NCBI GenBank assembly: GCA_030705825.1
Contig: JAUZPR010000004.1
Span: 222 to 64,221 of the forward strand
Length of the DNA: 64,000 nucleotides
Source of the DNA: Bacillota bacterium
GTDB lineage: Bacteria; Bacillota; Clostridia; Acetivibrionales; JANLFN01
Reading direction: 5' to 3'
Both the position numbers and the translations under genes were made by a program. The notes beneath the pieces are model-generated. The model did not search any database. It saw only the letters and a list, made by a program, of their open reading frames with translations, and was not told where the DNA came from. This document shows, piece by piece, positions 4,419-32,411 of this stretch. Each line of letters begins with the position of its first letter. Position 1 is the stretch's first letter.

Positions 4419-5318
4419 TTAAAACAAATCAGAGAATAGATCTTTTTTGGGTGACCATGGTGTATGGCTTATAAGTTTTGAATTATCACCATAAATATCA
4501 GATATGTCATTATTCTTTATCAAGCTGTCATCAATCTCAAAATACAGCTTCTTTCCAGCCATGTTCATCAGATTTGTTAAAATTTCCTCCATACTGAGTG
4601 ACACGGAACTGCATACATTGTAGATTTCTCCTGGATATCCGTTCATTAGAATTTGCCAATATGCTTCAACAACATCTGCAATATGTAAATAGTCTCTCTT
4701 TGGTTTTATATTGCCTACTTTTATAATATCTCCGTCCTTAGCATTGTTTATCTGTTCAATAAAATTGCCAACCGCCAATTTTCTGGAGATACCTTTTCCT
4801 ATTATATTGAAAGTTCTTGCAACATTCACATTGATTCCGAGGTTGTTAAAATAATATTGCGCAATTTCAGTTTGTATCAGCTTGGAAAAACCATATAAAT
4901 TTACAGGTGCTGCAGGGGAGGATTCTCTTACGGGTAACTGTCGGGCATTTCCGTATTCTGCTGCAGAACCGATTAAAAGTATTTTTTCTATAACTATATT
5001 ATTTTCTATAATTATTTCAAAAATATTTCGTGAGATATTTGCGTTAAGTTGATAATACTCATCAAATGATACGGCTTGGAAGGTACCTATCATATTTATC
5101 AAATAATTTGGTTTAAAGCTGACAATAATGTTTTTCAGGCTGTCTTTATCAAGAGGATTAACCTTTTCATACCATATCCATTTAAAATGGCTGTAATAGT
5201 AATCGTCCTTATCTACGCCGCAAATTGCGTATTTTTCATATAATTTATGTTTTTGGATAAAATCCTTAAAATGATAACCTGTAAAACTATTTGATCCTAG
5301 ACATAATATTTTTTTCAT
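4419..5318 (-). CDS. NAD-dependent epimerase/dehydratase/reductase (extended SDR), a nucleotide-sugar modifying enzyme.
   Basis: The preferred start is MKKILCLGSNSFTGYHF (ATG at 5318, GAGGAG 12 nt upstream), giving a Rossmann GxxxxxG N-terminus. The ORF-track start at 5402 would overlap the upstream gene by more than 100 nt. SDR-like YxxxK region (YGFSKLIQTEI). Overlaps the upstream gene by 32 nt. Confidence 0.75.
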   Translation of the reverse strand: MKKILCLGSNSFTGYHFKDFIQKHKLYEKYAICGVDKDDYYYSHFKWIWYEKVNPLDKDSLKNIIVSFKPNYLINMIGTFQAVSFDEYYQLNANISRNIFEIIIENNIVIEKILLIGSAAEYGNARQLPVRESSPAAPVNLYGFSKLIQTEIAQYYFNNLGINVNVARTFNIIGKGISRKLAVGNFIEQINNAKDGDIIKVGNIKPKRDYLHIADVVEAYWQILMNGYPGEIYNVCSSVSLSMEEILTNLMNMAGKKLYFEIDDSLIKNNDISDIYGDNSKLISHTPWSPKKDLFSDLF

Positions 5319-24491: not shown

Positions 24492-24620
24492 AAAAAAAAG
24501 ACTTTTAACACAACCTTTAATAAAAAGATTATGTTAAAAGTCTCGTTACCATATTATAGGCCGTAAAGCCAGGTATTAAACCAGTATGTTGACTTTACGA
24601 TTAAACTACTCCCCTTTAAC
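24492..24620 (-). promoter_or_regulatory. yybP-ykoY-type Mn2+ riboswitch (aptamer about 24536-24619) with expression-platform terminator (24492-24544).
   Basis: The minus-strand RNA reads AAAGGGGAGUAG...GUAAAGUCAACAUAC...GGCUUUAC...AUGGUAACGAGACUUUU. This matches the conserved GGGGAGUAG, GUCAACAUAC and ..AAGAGAC.. blocks of the family. The 3' P1 strand GAGACUUUUAACA can alternatively pair with UGUUAAAAGUC, which is followed by UUUUUUUU. Confidence 0.75.
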
Positions 24621-24626
24621 AAGGTA

Positions 24627-24656
24627 ATTTTACTATAAAAGTATAATATATGTCAA
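24627..24656 (-). promoter_or_regulatory. Sigma-A-like promoter driving the riboswitch leader.
   Basis: On the minus strand: TTGACA (24656-24651), 18-nt spacer, TAAAAT (24632-24627). Confidence 0.55.
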
Positions 24657-24843
24657 TCATTCGGAATTTTCGGCAGAGCCATCAATCCTAATAAATATTA
24701 TTAGTTGGTTTAGTTTGTATATGTTATAGGTGTATGTTACAATTAAATCATTACATCCCTGTTCCGATTTAATTTTAACATCTAATTTCCATAGTAAAAA
24801 ATTAATAGTTAAAGACAGAAAGGCAGAAATAACAAAGGGGTAA

Positions 24844-26565
24844 ATGATGAAAAACAAAACAGGATATTATGTCAGAGAAGTAAAAAATCTTAAGGACCTA
24901 TTAAATCAGAGTCGGGAATTGTTTGGAGATAAAAATGCCTTCCTTGTAAAAAAGCCTGAAGGCGAATATGAAGGTATTACCTATAAACAATTTTATAATG
25001 ATATAAATTCCTTTGGAACTGCACTGCTGAATATGGGATTGAAAAATAAGTTTGTTGCGGTTATCGGCGAAAACCGGTATGAATGGTGCGTAACCTATCT
25101 TTCCACAGTAAACGGAGTAGGGACAATTGTACCACTGGATAGGGAATTGCCTGAAGCCGACATAGAGAACCTGTTAAACAGATGTGAAGCAGAGGCTGTT
25201 GTTTTCTCGGGAAAACACAGTGGGGTTATGAGAAATATATCCAATAAGGTTTCTTCTGTAAAATATTTCATTAATATGGATTTAGATCAGGACAGAGACG
25301 GATTCTTGTCTTTTAAGCAGATATTGAATGCAGGGAGCCGGTTAATGCTTGATGGAGACAGGGCTTATCAAGATATTGATATAGACAGTGATAAGATGAA
25401 TATCCTAATCTTCACATCAGGCACAACAGGTTTTGCAAAGGGGGTTATGTTAAGCCACCGGAATATTTGCTCCAATATAGTTTCTGTTTGCTCAACAGTA
25501 AAAGTAACAGATAAGGATTCTTCCTTGTCCATACTTCCGCTTCATCACACTTATGAATGTACCTTGGGATTTTTAGCAATGATATATAACGGCTGTACAA
25601 TAGCATTTTGTGAGGGCTTGAAGCATATCGGCAAAAATCTTAAGGAGGTAAGTCCTACATTTTTGATAGCAGTTCCTCTGATTCTTGAAAATATGTATAA
25701 AAAAATCTGGGAACAGGCTTCAAAGAAAAAAGGTATGGGAGCAAAACTAAAAGCTGCGCTTGTATTCAGTAATATTCTAAATAAATTTCTGAGAATAGAT
25801 ATAAGAAAAAGACTTTTTAAACAAATTCATGATAATCTGGGCGGAAAGGTCAGACTAATTATTACCGGAGCTGCAGCAATTGACCCTAAAGTTTCCAAAG
25901 GCTTAAGACATATGGGTATACTTGTAGTCCAGGGCTATGGGCTTACTGAATGCTCGCCTTTGGCCATCGGAAACAGGGATTATATCTACAAAGACAGTGC
26001 AGTAGGTTTGCCTCTGCCTGGTGTAAAGGTAAAGTTAAAAGACCCCGATGTGCATGGTATAGGTGAACTTGTGGTAAAAGGCGATAATGTCATGTTAGGG
26101 TATTTCAAAGATGAAGAAGCTACCCGGAAAAGTATCAAAGACGGATGGTTCCATACCGGAGATCTTGGATGTATGAACAAATCAGGGTTCTACTACATTA
26201 CAGGCAGATGTAAAAATGTTATAGTTACTAAAAACGGAAAAAACATTTATCCCGAGGAATTAGAGGCATGCATTAACAAAAATCCTTTGGTGCAGGAATC
26301 CCTTGTTTGGGGCTGTTATGAGGAACAGTCCGGAGAGACTCATGTAAATGCACAGATATTCCCGAACCTTGAAGCTATAAAGGAAAAGTTCAAAATTTCA
26401 AGTATTTCAAAAGATGAATTGCTTAAGATATTTTCTGATATTGTAAAGAATGTAAATAAGGATATGCCTCTTTATAAGCGTATAAAACATTTTAGTATCC
26501 GTGAAACCGAATTTATAAAAACTACAACAAAAAAAATTAAGAGGTTCGCCGAAGGCGTAAGTTAA
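24844..26565 (+). CDS. Long-chain-fatty-acid--CoA ligase / AMP-dependent synthetase.
   Basis: RBS AAAGGGG. AMP-binding motif IFTSGTTGFAKGVMLSHRN. QGYGLTE, GWFHTGDLG and GRCKNVIVTKNGKNIYPEE. Confidence 0.85.
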   Translation: MMKNKTGYYVREVKNLKDLLNQSRELFGDKNAFLVKKPEGEYEGITYKQFYNDINSFGTALLNMGLKNKFVAVIGENRYEWCVTYLSTVNGVGTIVPLDRELPEADIENLLNRCEAEAVVFSGKHSGVMRNISNKVSSVKYFINMDLDQDRDGFLSFKQILNAGSRLMLDGDRAYQDIDIDSDKMNILIFTSGTTGFAKGVMLSHRNICSNIVSVCSTVKVTDKDSSLSILPLHHTYECTLGFLAMIYNGCTIAFCEGLKHIGKNLKEVSPTFLIAVPLILENMYKKIWEQASKKKGMGAKLKAALVFSNILNKFLRIDIRKRLFKQIHDNLGGKVRLIITGAAAIDPKVSKGLRHMGILVVQGYGLTECSPLAIGNRDYIYKDSAVGLPLPGVKVKLKDPDVHGIGELVVKGDNVMLGYFKDEEATRKSIKDGWFHTGDLGCMNKSGFYYITGRCKNVIVTKNGKNIYPEELEACINKNPLVQESLVWGCYEEQSGETHVNAQIFPNLEAIKEKFKISSISKDELLKIFSDIVKNVNKDMPLYKRIKHFSIRETEFIKTTTKKIKRFAEGVS

Positions 26566-26685
26566 AAAATCAGTACTAAAATGAAGTAAATCAAATTTGA
26601 TATATTTACGTTTGGCTTTTAAAATGTAAATATTAGTGGTAAAATATGAGAATAGAAATAATTGTGTAAGGAAAGGTCGTAGTTT

Positions 26686-26997
26686 ATGTTTTTCGCAGCA
26701 GGCACTTTAGCAGTTTGCTTTTTTATATGGTTGACCAGATCCCTATCCTGTACGATTAGAAAATATGTAGTAGGGTATTTAAATGTTGACCTTAAATTTG
26801 CTATTGAAAAATCTGCTGCTTTGTACAGTTTTTTAACCTATGTTTTAAAAGCTGCCGCTTGTACTGTTCTGCTAAGTTCAGTTATGCACATTTCCAGGCA
26901 TGCTGTAATTTCTTTGGACATAGTTTTTCTTTTTGCTTCATTAATTCTGATTTTATTCCATACTATAAAAGACTCAAGATATCCTTCCTTCAGGTAA
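26686..26997 (+). CDS. Hypothetical small membrane protein.
   Basis: 103-aa ORF with three hydrophobic segments and a plausible AAGGAAAGG RBS. No motif recognised. Confidence 0.4.
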   Translation: MFFAAGTLAVCFFIWLTRSLSCTIRKYVVGYLNVDLKFAIEKSAALYSFLTYVLKAAACTVLLSSVMHISRHAVISLDIVFLFASLILILFHTIKDSRYPSFR

Positions 26998-27148
26998 TTC
27001 CATAAAACAATCTTAAGATTTCCTCAAAAAGACATCAGGAGATATATGTATTATTAAGCGAATGGCTTAACATGTTGCGGTTCATATGTGTAACATTTTA
27101 GGATTGCTCATGCTTTTTTTACATTTCCAAAAATGAAGGAGGTTTGTT

Positions 27149-27880
27149 ATGCAAAAAAATTTAAATAAAATAACCGGAAAGCACAGCTTCAGGAATATAA
27201 CGCAGGAAATTGAGCGTGCACAGGAGATTATAGAAAGTCAGAATTTTGAAATAAGAAAGAACCTGAAAAAATACAACGATTTGATAGAACAACACAGGCA
27301 AATAGTATATAAAACAAGGTATGATTTACTGACAAGACAAATTTCACTTAATATTACATCAAAAAGATGTCCTGAACGATATATGCTGTTAAGTGAAAAG
27401 TACGGTGAAGGGGTACCAATAGAGGCGGAAAGGAGAATAGCCCTGCACTTCATAAATGAATGCTGGGAGGAATACCTTGGTTATGCAGCTTATATCCGTG
27501 AAGGCATCCATCTTGTAAATGTGGCTGGAACAGACCCATATACTGTATTTAACAGGGAAATCAGCAAGGCCTTCGAGGATATGCAGGAAAAAATTATTGA
27601 GAGTACAGTCGATGTTTTTAACTCGGCTGAGATAGATGAAAACGGAATAGATATTGAAAAGGAAGGTTTAAAAGGACCGTCGGCTACATGGACATATATA
27701 GTGGATGACAGCTCTGAACAGCTTGGCATACTAAAACTTCTCGGAAATCCAATTTCATACACCAATCCGGTTTTTATCCCGCTTTTGATAATTACAGGTA
27801 TAATTAACAGGTTTGTCACAAGGAAAAAGGCTTTGAAGAAAAGCGGATATTGGCAGGAGAATCAGGAGGATTCATTATGA
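27149..27880 (+). CDS. Stand-alone paralog of the SecA C-terminal (helical scaffold/wing-like) module, with a hydrophobic tail.
   Basis: Strong RBS GAAGGAGG. The 243-aa product aligns by eye along its length with the last roughly 215 aa of the downstream SecA-like protein. Examples: QNFEIRKNLKKY vs QNFDIRRNLKKY; YIREGIHLV in both; IDENGI.(I/L)EKEGLKGPS(A/S)TWTYI(V/I)DD. The stop TGA overlaps the downstream ATG (ATGA at 27877-27880). Confidence 0.75.
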   Translation: MQKNLNKITGKHSFRNITQEIERAQEIIESQNFEIRKNLKKYNDLIEQHRQIVYKTRYDLLTRQISLNITSKRCPERYMLLSEKYGEGVPIEAERRIALHFINECWEEYLGYAAYIREGIHLVNVAGTDPYTVFNREISKAFEDMQEKIIESTVDVFNSAEIDENGIDIEKEGLKGPSATWTYIVDDSSEQLGILKLLGNPISYTNPVFIPLLIITGIINRFVTRKKALKKSGYWQENQEDSL

Positions 27881-30282
27881 AAATAAATAAGATAGATTTT
27901 AAAAAATTGGCAAGGCAGCTTAAGTACAAGCACGTCGAATTTGATACTGAAAGCTATGTAAGTTTACTGGAGGAAATAAACAGCTACAATTTTGAGTCAA
28001 ATGACGACTCAAGCCTTAAAGAAATGTCGCAGAAGTTAAAATGGAAAGTGTCACAGGGAGAAGCACTTGACCGACTGCTTCCAGAGACCTACGCTGTTGT
28101 CAGGGAAATGTCGGCGAGGGTGTTGGGTATGAGACATTTTGATGTACAAGTATTGGCAGGTATAGCTATGCATTATGGTAATATTGTGGAAATGCAGACA
28201 GGAGAAGGAAAAACCCTGGCTGCCGTATTGCCTGCCTGCCTAAATGCTTTAACCGGAAAAGGAGTTCATATACTTACCTTCAACGACTACCTTGCAAAAC
28301 GGGATGCTGAGTGGATGGGCCCTGTTTACAGGATGTTCGGACTCAGCGTAGGTTATGTTCAGGAAAAAATGAGTCCGGAGCAGCGCAGAAAGGCATATGA
28401 ATGCGATATAACCTATCTTACTGCACGCGAATCAGGATTTGATTATATCAGGGATTTTTTATGCACCGATGAGAGGCAGCTTATCCTAAAACCATATAAT
28501 TTTGCCATAGTAGACGAGGCTGACTCCATAATGATTGATGAAGCCCGGGTCCCTCTTGTGATAGCAGGAAAAATGGACGAAGATCAAAATACACCTCAAC
28601 TGATGGCTGATATAGTAAAGGGTATGACGTTCGGCCAGGACTATGATACTGATGAATACAGCAGGAATGTTTATCTGACAGATGCCGGCACTCATAAGGC
28701 TGAAAAGCTGCTTAACTGCGGGAATCTGTATCTGCCTGCGAATATATGGCTGCTGACGGCTTTGAATAGTGCACTTCACGCTCAAGCACTTTTAAAACGG
28801 GAAAAGGACTATATCGTAAGAAATGGGAAGATAGAAATCATCGATGAATTTACTGGGAGAATAGCTGAAAAACGGCATTGGCCCGATGGCCTTCAATCGG
28901 CTGTTGAAGCCAAGGAGGGCTTAAAATCAGATTCCAGGGGCAGGATATTGAATTCCATAACAATGCAGGATTTCCTCAAGCTTTATCCCAAACTGTGCGG
29001 AATGACAGGTACTGCAAAGTCTGCTTCGGATGAATTCTTTGAATTCTATGGACTCAATGTGGCAGTTATTCCGACAAATAAGCCATGCATCAGGATTGAT
29101 CATCCGGATATGATTTTTACACATACCGAAGCTAAAATAAATGCACTTGTAAAGGAAATAAAACAAGTGCATGATACCGGCCGTCCAATACTTATAGGTA
29201 CGTTGACAGTGGAAGAATCCGAGCGGCTGGAGAAGGCTCTTAAATCTGCCGGTGTTGAGTGTCAGGTACTTAATGCAAAAAACGACGAGCTTGAGGCAAA
29301 GATCATTACAAATGCCGGAAAGTTGGGAGCTGTGACGGTATCAACAAATATGGCAGGCAGAGGTGCAGACATAAAACTGGGCGGGGAAAATGAAGAGGAG
29401 CACGATAGAGTTGCGGAACTGGGAGGTTTATATGTTATAGGCACCAACAGACATGAGAGCATGAGAATTGACAATCAATTGAAAGGAAGAGCCGGAAGAC
29501 AGGGAGATCCGGGAAGCACAAGATTTTTTATTAGTCTTGAAGATGATCTGATGATCCGGTATAGGCTTAAGGACCTTATACCTCCCAAATATTATCCCTC
29601 AAAACAGGATGATCCGATAGACGGTGATATATTGGGACGTGAAATTTCAAGTGCACAGAAAATAATTGACGGCCAGAATTTTGATATAAGAAGAAATCTT
29701 AAAAAGTACACAATTATACTTGAACAGCAGAGGCAGATAATCCACAAAAGGCGATATGAAGTTCTAACTGGAAGGCAGCCTATGCAAATTCTGGAGAACA
29801 GGTCGCCTGTACGTTACGCTGAATTAAAGAGATCTATAGGGGAGGATATTCTTAAAAAGGTAGAAAAGCTGCTTGCCCTGTACTATATGAACAGATGCTG
29901 GGAGGATTATCTGGATTATGTGGGTTATATCCGTGAGGGTATACATCTTGTGGCTATTGCAGGCAAGGATCCCCAGTTGGAATTTCACCAGAAAGTAATA
30001 GCGGCTTTTAATGAAATGCAGGAAAGCATAATTTCGAGTATGGTAGATAAATTCAACAGTGCAAAAATCGATGAAAATGGTATAAATCTCGAAAAGGAAG
30101 GGCTTAAAGGACCGTCATCCACCTGGACATATATTATAGATGACGGAACAGAACAATTCGGGATGCTTAAGATGTTGGGTGATACGGCTGCCATGGCTGC
30201 CGGTGCATTCCTTATACCTCTGTCCATGCTTTATGGAGTGTTCAACAAGAATTCAAACAGGAGAAAAATCTATAAAATTTAA
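27877..30282 (+). CDS. secA: SecA-family preprotein translocase ATPase, SecA2-like (short preprotein-binding region, no C-terminal zinc finger).
   Basis: ATG 27877 lies 7 nt after AGGAGGA. Motifs: VLGMRHFDVQ, EMQTGEGKTL (Walker A), GKGVHILTFNDYLAKRD, AIVDEADSIMIDEARVPLVI (DEAD), GMTGTA, TNMAGRGADIKLGG, GRAGRQGDPG. Confidence 0.85.
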   Translation: MKINKIDFKKLARQLKYKHVEFDTESYVSLLEEINSYNFESNDDSSLKEMSQKLKWKVSQGEALDRLLPETYAVVREMSARVLGMRHFDVQVLAGIAMHYGNIVEMQTGEGKTLAAVLPACLNALTGKGVHILTFNDYLAKRDAEWMGPVYRMFGLSVGYVQEKMSPEQRRKAYECDITYLTARESGFDYIRDFLCTDERQLILKPYNFAIVDEADSIMIDEARVPLVIAGKMDEDQNTPQLMADIVKGMTFGQDYDTDEYSRNVYLTDAGTHKAEKLLNCGNLYLPANIWLLTALNSALHAQALLKREKDYIVRNGKIEIIDEFTGRIAEKRHWPDGLQSAVEAKEGLKSDSRGRILNSITMQDFLKLYPKLCGMTGTAKSASDEFFEFYGLNVAVIPTNKPCIRIDHPDMIFTHTEAKINALVKEIKQVHDTGRPILIGTLTVEESERLEKALKSAGVECQVLNAKNDELEAKIITNAGKLGAVTVSTNMAGRGADIKLGGENEEEHDRVAELGGLYVIGTNRHESMRIDNQLKGRAGRQGDPGSTRFFISLEDDLMIRYRLKDLIPPKYYPSKQDDPIDGDILGREISSAQKIIDGQNFDIRRNLKKYTIILEQQRQIIHKRRYEVLTGRQPMQILENRSPVRYAELKRSIGEDILKKVEKLLALYYMNRCWEDYLDYVGYIREGIHLVAIAGKDPQLEFHQKVIAAFNEMQESIISSMVDKFNSAKIDENGINLEKEGLKGPSSTWTYIIDDGTEQFGMLKMLGDTAAMAAGAFLIPLSMLYGVFNKNSNRRKIYKI

Positions 30283-30456
30283 AAAAATTAATTTTTTTTG
30301 AGTACTTTTTACAGAATTTACGTATAATCAGTTGAAGACAAAAATTAGTCCTGATTTTTAAGCGCTTCACGTCAGAATGTATGTTGACGTTGCAAAATTT
30401 GATATGCATTCTCGATTTAATTTTTGGTCGTCGAAAAACTTGTTTGGAGGGAAAAC

Positions 30457-30972
30457 ATGCGTAAGGAGAATTTGTTTGCCGGTATTTTTTTTATAGTCAT
30501 CGGTTGTGCACTTTTAATTGCCAACTATGTTTTCAATATTAATATTTTTCATTTTGGATCGGGTGATTTTTGGCCTTTTATAGTACTTGCAGTAGGAGTA
30601 ATTTTTGAAATGTCCTACTTTACATCCAGAAGGGCGCCAGGCTTACTTGTACCCGGAGGAATAATTACGGTTTGCAGCTTGCTTTTCATGTTTGAGGTGG
30701 CAACCAAATGGGATTTTTCAGAATATACCTGGCCTGTGTACATATTGGCAGTAACTTTCGGTTTGTTCCAGCTGTATGCCTTCGGCAGCAGAAGTAAGGG
30801 ACTGTTTCTGACTGTTATGATTCTTACAGCGGTCACAGCTCTTTCGGCAGTTCTTGTTATTCTCCAGGGCCTTTCGAATTGGGCAGACTTCGGCAGTGTC
30901 GCAATTGCGGCAATTCTAATAATATTCGGCTTGATTGTTCTGTTTGGACGTAAAAACAAGGGAAGAACGTAA
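30457..30972 (+). CDS. Hypothetical integral membrane protein (5-6 TM).
   Basis: ATG 30457 lies after GGAGGG. Almost entirely hydrophobic. No motif recognised. Confidence 0.6.
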   Translation: MRKENLFAGIFFIVIGCALLIANYVFNINIFHFGSGDFWPFIVLAVGVIFEMSYFTSRRAPGLLVPGGIITVCSLLFMFEVATKWDFSEYTWPVYILAVTFGLFQLYAFGSRSKGLFLTVMILTAVTALSAVLVILQGLSNWADFGSVAIAAILIIFGLIVLFGRKNKGRT

Positions 30973-31036
30973 GCAGCTTAGTTAAAACGATTTTTTAGAA
31001 TAAAGTATTGGAAATACATTTAAGATGAAAATTTTT

Positions 31037-31091: not shown

Positions 31092-32189
31092 CTATTTAGT
31101 AAATGAAATTGGGTTACCTATGTTGTTATTGTTGATGTCTTCTAATTGTATTGATATTCCACAGCCCGCCTTGATACCTGAGGGTAGGGTTATTTCAAAA
31201 GAAGACTCGCCGTTTCCGGGTGGAACAGTACAAATAAACTGTTGGGATTGCTGGATTGGGGATTTTGAAACAAAATAAGTTGCACCGTTACCAATAACAG
31301 TTATTTTCACAATATAGGTATCATCAGTTGTAACAGGTTGACCTTGACTATCCTTTAAGATTAATGTGAGTCTGCTTGTTGAATTCTCAGCCAGAGGCCT
31401 GTCCAGTGAAACAACAGAATTAATGTGATCAACTGAAGAATTTTTTGCAGAAGTAATTTTGATTGATTTAAATGCAACAACCTTATCAGATTTATCCACT
31501 TCAATTATATTTAGATAACTGCTGTTTGGTCCGAACTTATCTACTTCCGAATCAATTCTAACAACATAATCAGAAGGTCGATTTACTCCTACAGCAGCCA
31601 ATTCATTTATTTGTGATGTATTAAGTGAAGAATAGTATGTGTGTCCATTTTGCAGAGGTTTAAACGATAGTTTATAAAAGCCGGCATATTGTGATTCAAT
31701 CTGTGTAACCTGTTGTGACAAGGAAACGCTGGAAGCTGGTTTGCCTGAAGTTACTATTAAGGTTTTGGTTTTGGAGTCATAATTAGATTTAAACCCCAGT
31801 ATTTCTAATACCATTCTTGTTGGTAGATATTGTTTACCGTTAAATGACACGGATTCGGTATCATTAAGAATTCTAAATCCATTTTTATAAATATATAAGG
31901 TACCCATTGGTATTTCCAATTTAATTCCATTCTTTTCTGCAGTTGCAGTCTTTTTCCCGGAATCCCATCTTACCTTGGCACCGGCTTTTTCTAATGTCGC
32001 TGTAACAGGCACCAGAATTCTCCCTTTAGTATCAATATAAGGATATCCTGTACTGTTGTTATAGCTCACATACTGCCCGTTAATTTTAACTTTGGGCACC
32101 GTAGTCTGTGCATTTATAAATCCAAAGCTAAAAATGAGAAAAATGATACTAACAAGAAAACAATAAATTGAAAAGCGGTTTTTTGACAT
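31092..32189 (-). CDS. Secreted protein with a copper-amine-oxidase N-terminal-like (stalk) domain.
   Basis: ATG 32189 lies after GGGGGGA. Signal-like segment FLVSIIFLIFSFGFINAQ. KINGQYV...YIDTKGRILVPV...LEKAGAKVRWD...NGK.YLP.R resembles the Cu_amine_oxidN1 domain common in Clostridia. Confidence 0.65.
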   Translation of the reverse strand: MSKNRFSIYCFLVSIIFLIFSFGFINAQTTVPKVKINGQYVSYNNSTGYPYIDTKGRILVPVTATLEKAGAKVRWDSGKKTATAEKNGIKLEIPMGTLYIYKNGFRILNDTESVSFNGKQYLPTRMVLEILGFKSNYDSKTKTLIVTSGKPASSVSLSQQVTQIESQYAGFYKLSFKPLQNGHTYYSSLNTSQINELAAVGVNRPSDYVVRIDSEVDKFGPNSSYLNIIEVDKSDKVVAFKSIKITSAKNSSVDHINSVVSLDRPLAENSTSRLTLILKDSQGQPVTTDDTYIVKITVIGNGATYFVSKSPIQQSQQFICTVPPGNGESSFEITLPSGIKAGCGISIQLEDINNNNIGNPISFTK

Positions 32190-32411
32190 GTTTGAAGTCC
32201 CCCCCAAGTATAAATATTCAAATATGAGGCTTGCTGATTTCATTTTAAAACTAAGTTATTATATTTACTATTATATATTAACATTATTGACAAAAAGTAT
32301 CAATTATGGACTCTATTTGTTAATGTATATTTTTTGAATATTGCATATTGTTATTAACTCCCCTAATTTGTGGTATAATATGGTGCGTATGTACAAGGAT
32401 TTCAGGAGGAA

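Follow-up and report, generated by a model that had tools for sequence, protein, structure and literature searches.

What is the role of a small gene that encodes only the C-terminal part of a SecA protein and directly precedes a complete secA2 gene? The question is raised by a locus in a metagenome-assembled genome (MAG) of a Bacillota bacterium (assembly GCA_030705825.1, contig JAUZPR010000004.1). The window, i.e. the whole stretch of DNA that was analysed, comprises 64,000 nt (positions 222 to 64,221 of the contig, forward strand). A preliminary description of this DNA had pointed to an open reading frame (ORF) of 243 aa at 27149–27880 with a strong ribosome-binding site (RBS), GAAGGAGG, and to its overlap with the gene of a SecA2-like ATPase. 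Both were reproduced: the coordinates and the RBS are correct, and the overlap is exact, with the TGA of the small ORF lying over the ATG of secA2 (ATGA at 27877–27880). We read the small ORF as a motor-less secA2 paralogue that is still a working gene and whose product, itself non-catalytic, would act at the membrane as a partner of SecA2 or as its regulator. This reading as a whole is given a probability of about 0.5.

The large gene and its short paralogue

By its sequence, the large gene is an unremarkable SecA2 of the mycobacterial type. Its 801-aa product scored 852.8 bits against TIGR04221 (mycobacterial-type accessory SecA2, equivalog; cutoff 725) and contains the Pfam domains SecA_DEAD, SecA_PP_bind, P-loop_SecA and SecA_SW. 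The motor motifs are readable (Walker A GEGKT, a DEAD-type box and motif VI GRAGRQGDPG). The wing is reduced or absent: the alignment with Escherichia coli SecA skips ~669–738, and the alignment with Mycobacterium tuberculosis SecA2 (4UAQ) is colinear. The AlphaFold2 model had a predicted local distance difference test (pLDDT) score of 82.4. The product is identical in sequence to the deposited protein 'accessory Sec system translocase SecA2', and the product of the small ORF is deposited as 'hypothetical protein' (locus tag Q8920_01210, Bacillota MAG). Besides these two copies, no other secA gene was found in the 64-kb window by tblastn.

BLASTP of the two products aligned residues 17–230 of the small protein with residues 586–800 of SecA2 (E 1e-75), with 110 of 215 residues identical (51%), 71% positives and one gap. 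This bears out the preliminary description, which had seen about half of the residues identical over ~215 aa of the SecA2 C-terminus. The blocks it had quoted (QNFxIRxNLKKY, CWExYL.Y..YIREGIHLV and IDENGI..EKEGLKGPS.TWTYI.DD) are all present in the alignment. YIREGIHLV is identical in both proteins, and the segment with GLKGPS.TWTY..DD (residues 161–190) is the most conserved between the copies, with 77% identity.

The sole Pfam domain of the small protein is SecA_SW (86.3 bits, cutoff 26.7); NBD1, PPXD and NBD2 were searched for with Pfam and not found. As it has no motor, the small protein is not a SecA ATPase and hence not a SecA2.

Domains and predicted structure of the small protein

The preliminary description had called the small ORF a paralogue of the C-terminal module. 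It is a true paralogue, but this covers only a part of it, as the small ORF additionally retains the N-terminus and the 5' region of a secA2 gene. Its first residues, MQKNLNKIT, fit the SecA2 consensus M-x-K-N-[KL]-[NS]-x-[LFI]-[KN]. The mean number of identities of this N-terminal 9-mer was 2.08 of 9, compared with 0.59 ± 0.34 for control 9-mers, and only one of 224 controls reached 2.08. At the DNA level, the surroundings of the RBS and start codon align with the secA2 5' region of L005 and L006, the two loci whose SecA2 genes come closest within the genome collection (63% identity). In effect, the small protein is SecA2 minus residues ~17–585, i.e. without NBD1, PPXD and NBD2. To judge from the homology at both of its ends, the small ORF is an internally deleted copy of a whole gene and more than a duplicated 3' module.

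The AlphaFold2 model of the small protein (pLDDT 83.3) consists of a helix at 11–61, short helices at 69–85, a helical hairpin at 88–126/130–159, a small beta hairpin and a helix at 209–231. Helices 11–61, 88–126 and 130–159 reached a pLDDT >90, and the scaffold helix and the two-helix finger are intact in the model. The P..TWTY..D stretch was modelled with low confidence; P177, W181, T182 and Y183 are invariant positions of the family.

In a Foldseek search against the PDB, the 14 best matches were all SecA (probability 1.00), led by M. tuberculosis SecA2 4UAQ. The same entry is the closest solved structure by sequence (its residues 594–762 against residues 21–189 of the small protein, E 7e-21). 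With E. coli SecA, the alignment falls into two blocks, positions 615–668 (scaffold) and 739–820 (finger) of the deposited chain, and the helical wing between them (about 669–738, deposited chain) has no counterpart in the small protein. The term 'scaffold/wing-like' of the preliminary description was therefore right for the scaffold helix only. As in M. tuberculosis SecA2, hardly any wing is left, and a two-helix finger and a family-specific C-terminal part are present instead.

The sole hydrophobic window of the small protein is C-terminal (residues 197–226). The Kyte–Doolittle maximum over 19 residues was 1.55 at 201–219, and that of the SecA2 counterpart 1.79 at 771–789. No N-terminal signal or transmembrane segment was found in the small protein by hydropathy.

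A C-terminus of this kind was also seen more widely in the SecA2 family. A hydrophobic segment of ~20 residues followed by Arg/Lys occurs in both window copies (27749–27841 and 30187–30279) and in P0002, P0004, P0143, P0155, P0161 and P0205. This hydrophobic-basic end replaces the zinc-binding tail of SecA and is modelled by AlphaFold2 as a helix of mixed confidence. It suggests a built-in membrane anchor or a partner-binding helix.

Constraint on the small protein

The reading frame of the small ORF is open: none of its 243 codons is an in-frame stop, compared with 20–24 stops in its two other frames. The probability that random sequence of the same composition stays open over 243 codons is ~3e-9.

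The mean corrected distance to 150 outgroup C-domains was about the same for the small protein (1.174) and SecA2 (1.180) and larger for L005 (1.28). Branch lengths in a neighbour-joining (NJ) tree were 0.39, 0.30 and about 0.42, respectively. Identity between the two copies was 0.63 at first, 0.72 at second and 0.38 at third codon positions. The nonsynonymous distance (dN) between the copies was 0.44 and the synonymous distance (dS) was saturated, so that dN/dS between them is only an upper bound; for SecA2 and L005, dN was 0.41 and dS 1.75.

Conserved sites were defined as the 42 C-domain positions that are at least 90% conserved across 72 full-length SecA2s. The small protein retains 37 of them and SecA2 40; three of the 72 intact SecA2s depart at these sites as often as the small protein does. 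Substitutions of the small protein at near-invariant SecA2 sites include Q618H (100% conserved), E702V (99%), R595E (94%) and D680G (89%). In the tail, by contrast, the small protein is closer to the family consensus than SecA2 (45 vs 26% identity), and LIITGIINRF is identical in the small-protein tail and in the SecA2 tail of L005. This asymmetric divergence of the copies fits a division of labour after duplication, for which it is only suggestive.

Because of its rate, the pattern over codon positions, the open frame and the retained conserved sites, the small protein is, by these comparisons, a protein that has been under constraint at the protein level for most of its history. The preliminary description had argued against a decaying duplicate, and this view holds: the ORF is intact, its rate is that of a C-domain, and identity between the copies is higher at second than at first and far lower at third codon positions.

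Gene order and probable origin of the small ORF

The gene order common to the window, L005 and L006 is acyl-CoA synthetase, a hydrophobic ORF of ~100 aa, secA2, LiaF-TM-like membrane-protein genes, an S-adenosylmethionine (SAM) methyltransferase and RluA. Identity of the L005 and L006 neighbours to those of the window is 69–70% for the acyl-CoA synthetase and 78–80% for the SAM methyltransferase. The small ORF is absent at both syntenic loci. Where the window has it, L005 has 63 nt between the hydrophobic ORF and secA2.

In 25 Bacillota loci that were fetched (e.g. L005, 3886–4191), the hydrophobic ORF of ~100 aa is the gene immediately before secA2. As it adjoins secA2 in all of these, the pair is ancestral and the small ORF came between its members. 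The ~100-aa protein itself seems to be a conserved small membrane protein that accompanies secA2 as a hitherto undescribed partner. Upstream of the small ORF, at 26401–27200, no traces of SecA or of motor domains were found by tblastn.

The NJ tree was calculated with bootstrap from 207 C-domain columns of 154 distinct sequences. It united the small protein, the SecA2 C-domain, L005 and L006 in one clade (96% bootstrap). Within this clade, the three possible resolutions received 7, 41 and 52%. The small ORF reads 12 codons beyond the homologous stop position, and the initiation region of secA2 lies inside its 3' end.

In the proposed course of events, the ancestral state would have been a small membrane-protein gene followed by secA2. 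A tandem duplication of secA2 would have taken place at about the time when this lineage split from that of L005 and L006. The upstream copy would then have lost codons ~17–585 in frame (NBD1, PPXD and NBD2) and would have retained its native 5' region, RBS, ATG, first ~16 residues and whole C-domain. An origin by tandem duplication and in-frame internal deletion of the upstream copy is well supported by the alignments and the gene order.

The small ORF could also be foreign, namely a piece of secA2 that was acquired from a donor of the same clade by illegitimate recombination; the 49% divergence would then be the distance between donor and recipient. A donor from a third lineage is compatible with the bootstrap values of 7, 41 and 52% within the clade. 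However, a secA2-type 5' region and N-terminus stand where secA2 ancestrally began, directly behind the conserved membrane-protein gene, and GC content and GC content at third codon positions (GC3) of the small ORF (0.37 and 0.365) match the window (0.376). Moreover, the junction of a secA2 end with a secA2 start is the product expected of a tandem duplication. We regard a foreign origin as very improbable.

Separately, two SecA2-type genes were seen on separate contigs in each of three related MAGs (L005 and L068, L006 and L072, L007 and L019). Hence, this SecA2 type has been duplicated more than once in the clade.

Search for further examples

In a word-indexed search of 5.8 billion protein clusters, the ORF itself came up, and all other matches had at most 44% identity. 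An exhaustive scan of 1.84 billion representatives gave many short matches and, among those inspected, no orthologue of the small ORF; single-protein scans of the genome and metagenome contig collections gave no orthologue either. Profile scans of both contig collections, with the best 80 loci kept per scan, yielded 160 loci, each with one C-domain copy that is part of a secA2 gene. A tblastn search that finds both copies in the window found a single copy per locus in 164 related loci, and no tandem full-length secA2 copies occurred among the related loci examined. The preliminary description had not recognised the arrangement as a described one. This stands, as none was found in the literature searched and no second case among the 164 related loci.

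Of the short matches with SecA_SW only, 22 sequences were read and the context of nine was examined. Five candidates for stand-alone C-domain genes (L001, L165, L166, L168 and L169) turned out to be downstream pieces of secA2 with an in-frame stop or a frameshift, and two (L003 and L004) were fragments at contig edges. The contigs of L167 and L170 are too short for the context to be judged. In-frame stops at otherwise conserved secA2 positions were read at ~7965 in L001 (GT*RHES), ~2950 in L165 (KNE*RKK) and ~92 in L166 (R*GI); these could be pseudogenes, sequencing errors or recoded stops.

Another SecA C-domain ORF, of 229 aa, lies at 4794–5483 of L135 directly after a flavodoxin-like gene, and also in L131 (two metagenomes). 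Its scaffold motif is degenerate (GRRMVEGYNA), and the 6.7-kb contig carries neither a motor domain nor a secA2. It was rejected as an analogue because it looks like a 5'-truncated remnant.

These broken secA2 genes resemble the small ORF in that their SecA_SW-only proteins have 200–290 aa and the same single Pfam domain. The ORF in the window differs from them, as it stands beside a complete secA2 and has its own RBS, its own start and a SecA2-type N-terminus.

The most serious rival explanation arises from these results. The small ORF could be a young remnant: two full-length tandem paralogues would have existed for most of the time, and the fragment left by a recent internal deletion would be functionless in itself and still undecayed. 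Such a remnant would be expected to be a singleton, and the arrangement is indeed absent from L005, L006 and the 164 loci. Databases contain many secA2 genes that are broken or truncated (L001, L165, L166, L168, L169 and L135), and several genomes of the clade have two SecA2-type genes (L005 and L068, L006 and L072). The equal rate and the bias over codon positions would also arise from selection on a full-length paralogue.

On the other hand, the deletion is in frame and exactly at domain boundaries, the native RBS, ATG and N-terminus were kept, and no stop or frameshift has accumulated in the small ORF. No locus with tandem full-length secA2 copies, the state from which a remnant would have come, was found. 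The scaffold motif AQRIIEGQNF, which is degenerate in L135 and in its L165 relative (with the in-frame stop), is not degenerate in the small protein. Furthermore, the changes at near-invariant sites (5 of 42 in the small protein vs 2 in SecA2) and the diverged SecA2 tail suggest some time under a changed division of labour. We consider a young remnant possible, though not probable.

Translation signals at the gene overlap

A strong Shine–Dalgarno sequence precedes each of the two genes. A consensus scan of the + strand found no terminator-like sites at 24544–31035, and promoter-like matches were no commoner than in shuffled sequences. That the small ORF is still a working gene in the same operon as secA2 is supported, not proven, by these signals and by its reading frame.

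The RNA fold at the overlap is weak (-15.1 kcal/mol, z = -2.28), with the Shine–Dalgarno sequence of secA2 in the hairpin loop. For the fold of the 5' leader no difference from shuffled sequences was seen, and the Rfam scan found only a tRNA elsewhere. The preliminary description had argued for coupled translation with stoichiometric expression of both products. The ATGA overlap does suggest coupling, but secA2 has its own strong Shine–Dalgarno sequence inside the small ORF, so that equal stoichiometry does not follow from it. From the arrangement of these elements, translational coupling is plausible and not required.

A different use of the overlap would be a cis-acting upstream ORF, in which only the act of translation matters, either for coupling or as a monitor like SecM or MifM, and the product is dispensable. 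Monitoring ORFs such as SecM and MifM are short, are unrelated to the downstream protein, and have an N-terminal signal for export or insertion and an arrest peptide. Like secM before secA and mifM before yidC2, the small ORF lies immediately upstream of a protein-export gene and overlaps its initiation region. The ATGA overlap and the position of the secA2 Shine–Dalgarno sequence in a small hairpin (the fold with z = -2.28) fit this idea, and the hydrophobic segment 201–219, about 28 residues before the stop (codon 244), could sense membrane insertion. However, the hallmarks of monitoring ORFs are not seen in the small ORF: its product begins with neither a signal nor a transmembrane segment, and no arrest motif could be recognised. 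If only translation in cis counted, there would be no need for 215 amino acids to be kept at the protein level in parallel with the SecA2 family. The hairpin is weak, with the Shine–Dalgarno sequence in its loop, and relatives express secA2 without such an ORF. A purely cis-acting role is improbable.

A heptamer G_AAA_AAG was noticed at 27823–27829 in the frame of the small ORF, within the stretch, beginning at 27808, in which the secA2 frame is open too. The dnaX-type slippery site is A_AAA_AAG. A programmed -1 frameshift at the heptamer would fuse the small ORF to SecA2 and add an N-terminal C-domain to it. The secA2 frame is open from 27808 up to its ATG, the heptamer is one base off the dnaX type, and a 5-bp hairpin follows. 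Yet the heptamer is non-canonical and has no strong stimulatory structure, and secA2 has its own Shine–Dalgarno sequence and ATG and an N-terminus that matches the family. Such a fusion is hardly to be expected.

Proposed function of the small protein

A present-day function of the small protein is likely. The closest precedent for its action is the C34 part of E. coli SecA (610–901), which is separable, down-regulates the N68 ATPase, and has been implicated in dimerization and in SecY and lipid binding; C34 also complements N-terminal SecA fragments in trans (PMC5456053). Both comprise the same region of SecA (scaffold helix, two-helix finger/IRA1 and C-tail). C34 is, however, a laboratory or proteolytic fragment, whereas the small protein is encoded by an old gene beside a SecA2 that has its own C-domain. 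The small protein also differs in its ~16 N-terminal SecA2 residues and its hydrophobic end, and in having no wing and no zinc-binding tail. By this analogy, it would be a natural counterpart of C34.

The small protein has kept the SecA regions for contact with SecY and the membrane and for regulating or pairing with the motor; the catalytic regions and the preprotein clamp are gone. The preliminary description had proposed a heterodimer partner, a regulator that mimics IRA1 or a membrane receptor, all of which are candidate roles. C-domain contacts could let the small protein pair with SecA2. Alternatively, it could occupy the docking sites of SecA2 on SecYEG or on the membrane. In either case, the effect would be to adjust the timing of ATP hydrolysis by SecA2 or of its engagement with the channel. 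The specific mode of action is what we infer from C34. As elements for SecY and lipid contact and for regulation are retained and C34 provides a precedent, a non-catalytic partner or regulator is favoured.

A more specific version goes beyond this. The small protein could be a dedicated, stoichiometric, non-catalytic subunit of SecA2 that is anchored in the membrane by the ancestral tail, possibly on the ~100-aa membrane protein, and that gates the ATPase or access to SecYEG. We consider this rather doubtful. If true, it would be a natural split of the regulation and docking of SecA from its motor, with the tail of SecA2 diverging after the hand-over.

Several observations weigh against a working partner or regulator. 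The stand-alone small ORF was seen only once, in one MAG, and the weight of the finding is limited because this is a single uncultured genome. The nearest SecA2 anywhere is 64% identical; the lineage is thus essentially unsampled and offers no close species in which the stand-alone form might be seen to be conserved. The small ORF is missing from L005 and L006, the closest relatives with the same gene order. The preliminary description had named just this, an ORF absent from close relatives that conserve secA2, as evidence against a functional pair, and formally it is what these two loci show. They are distant relatives, at only 63% SecA2 identity, so that the absence shows lineage specificity and not lack of function. 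The TWTY motif gained nothing in the full-length model (pLDDT about 42–66 vs 48–50 in the isolated model); with low confidence in both, the models are uninformative on docking onto the motor. Coupling to secA2 is not required either, as secA2 has its own Shine–Dalgarno sequence. Finally, the signal of selection may have accrued while the upstream copy was still a full-length paralogue.

Neighbouring genes and coordinates

The coordinates of the features are given in Table 1. Homologues of the membrane protein that follows secA2 at 30424–30972 are also found downstream of secA2 in L005 and L006. A gene for a secreted protein lies near secA2 on the opposite strand (31092–32243, -). Its product has a copper amine oxidase N-terminal-type domain and a weak match to the S-layer SbsC C-terminal domain, and it is conceivable as a SecA2 substrate.

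Table 1. Features of the small ORF–secA2 locus (positions in the 64-kb window)
Feature	Position	Strand	Remark
Small ORF (243 aa)	27149–27880	+	Motor-less SecA2 paralogue; ATG 27149, TGA 27878–27880
secA2 (801 aa)	27877–30282	+	Complete accessory SecA2-type ATPase; TIGR04221, all SecA Pfam domains
ATGA stop/start overlap	27877–27880	+	TGA of small ORF over ATG of secA2; read from the sequence
Shine–Dalgarno GAAGGAGG of small ORF	27135–27142	+	6 nt before ATG; read from the sequence
Shine–Dalgarno AGGAGG of secA2	27864–27869	+	Within the 3' end of the small ORF
SecA2-type N-terminus, residues 1–16 (MQKNLNKITGKHSFRN)	27149–27196	+	Fits the N-terminal consensus of the family
Helical scaffold, residues 17–62	27197–27334	+	AlphaFold2 helix 11–61, pLDDT >90
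Two-helix finger/IRA1, residues 88–160	27410–27628	+	Helices 88–126 and 130–159; contains YIREGIHLV
Beta hairpin and GLKGPS.TWTY..DD motif, residues 161–190	27629–27718	+	Sequence conservation between the copies
Hydrophobic tail, then basic residues, 201–231	27749–27841	+	Kyte–Doolittle; predicted helix 209–231
SecA2 C-domain, residues 586–800	29632–30276	+	Paralogous to the small ORF
Hydrophobic ORF (103 aa)	26686–26997	+	No Pfam match; ancestral immediate upstream neighbour of secA2
LiaF-TM/DUF6320-like membrane protein	30424–30972	+	Syntenic context only; Pfam matches weak, all below curated cutoffs

Meaning for SecA2 biology

Among known systems, the mycobacterial-type SecA2 (TIGR04221; 4UAQ) is the nearest. 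The 801-aa neighbour scores above the equivalog cutoff, the best structural match of the small protein is 4UAQ, and the wing is reduced in both; the small ORF differs in having no ATPase motor. No stand-alone C-domain partner for a mycobacterial-type SecA2 was found in the literature searched. The described partner of mycobacterial SecA2 that came up there is SatS, an unrelated chaperone (PMC6333443).

Secondary SecA_DEAD-domain proteins of Planctomycetes and Verrucomicrobia have kept the motor and have no SecA_SW (PMC4452313). Like the small ORF, they are lineage-specific SecA paralogues with a partial domain set. They are its mirror image, however, as the small ORF retains the scaffold and finger and has no motor.

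My literature searches found no description of a free-standing SecA C-domain gene. To our knowledge, the regulation of the motor by the SecA C-domain and its coupling to SecY have so far been studied with engineered fragments. The targeting and regulation of accessory SecA2 proteins are still unsettled in the field. The small ORF would be a clean case of a partner gene that arose from whole-gene duplication and a domain-precise internal deletion. A free-standing C-domain that evolved naturally, apparently under selection, and is encoded together with an intact SecA2 would offer a ready-made test system for regulation in trans, C-domain pairing and membrane docking.

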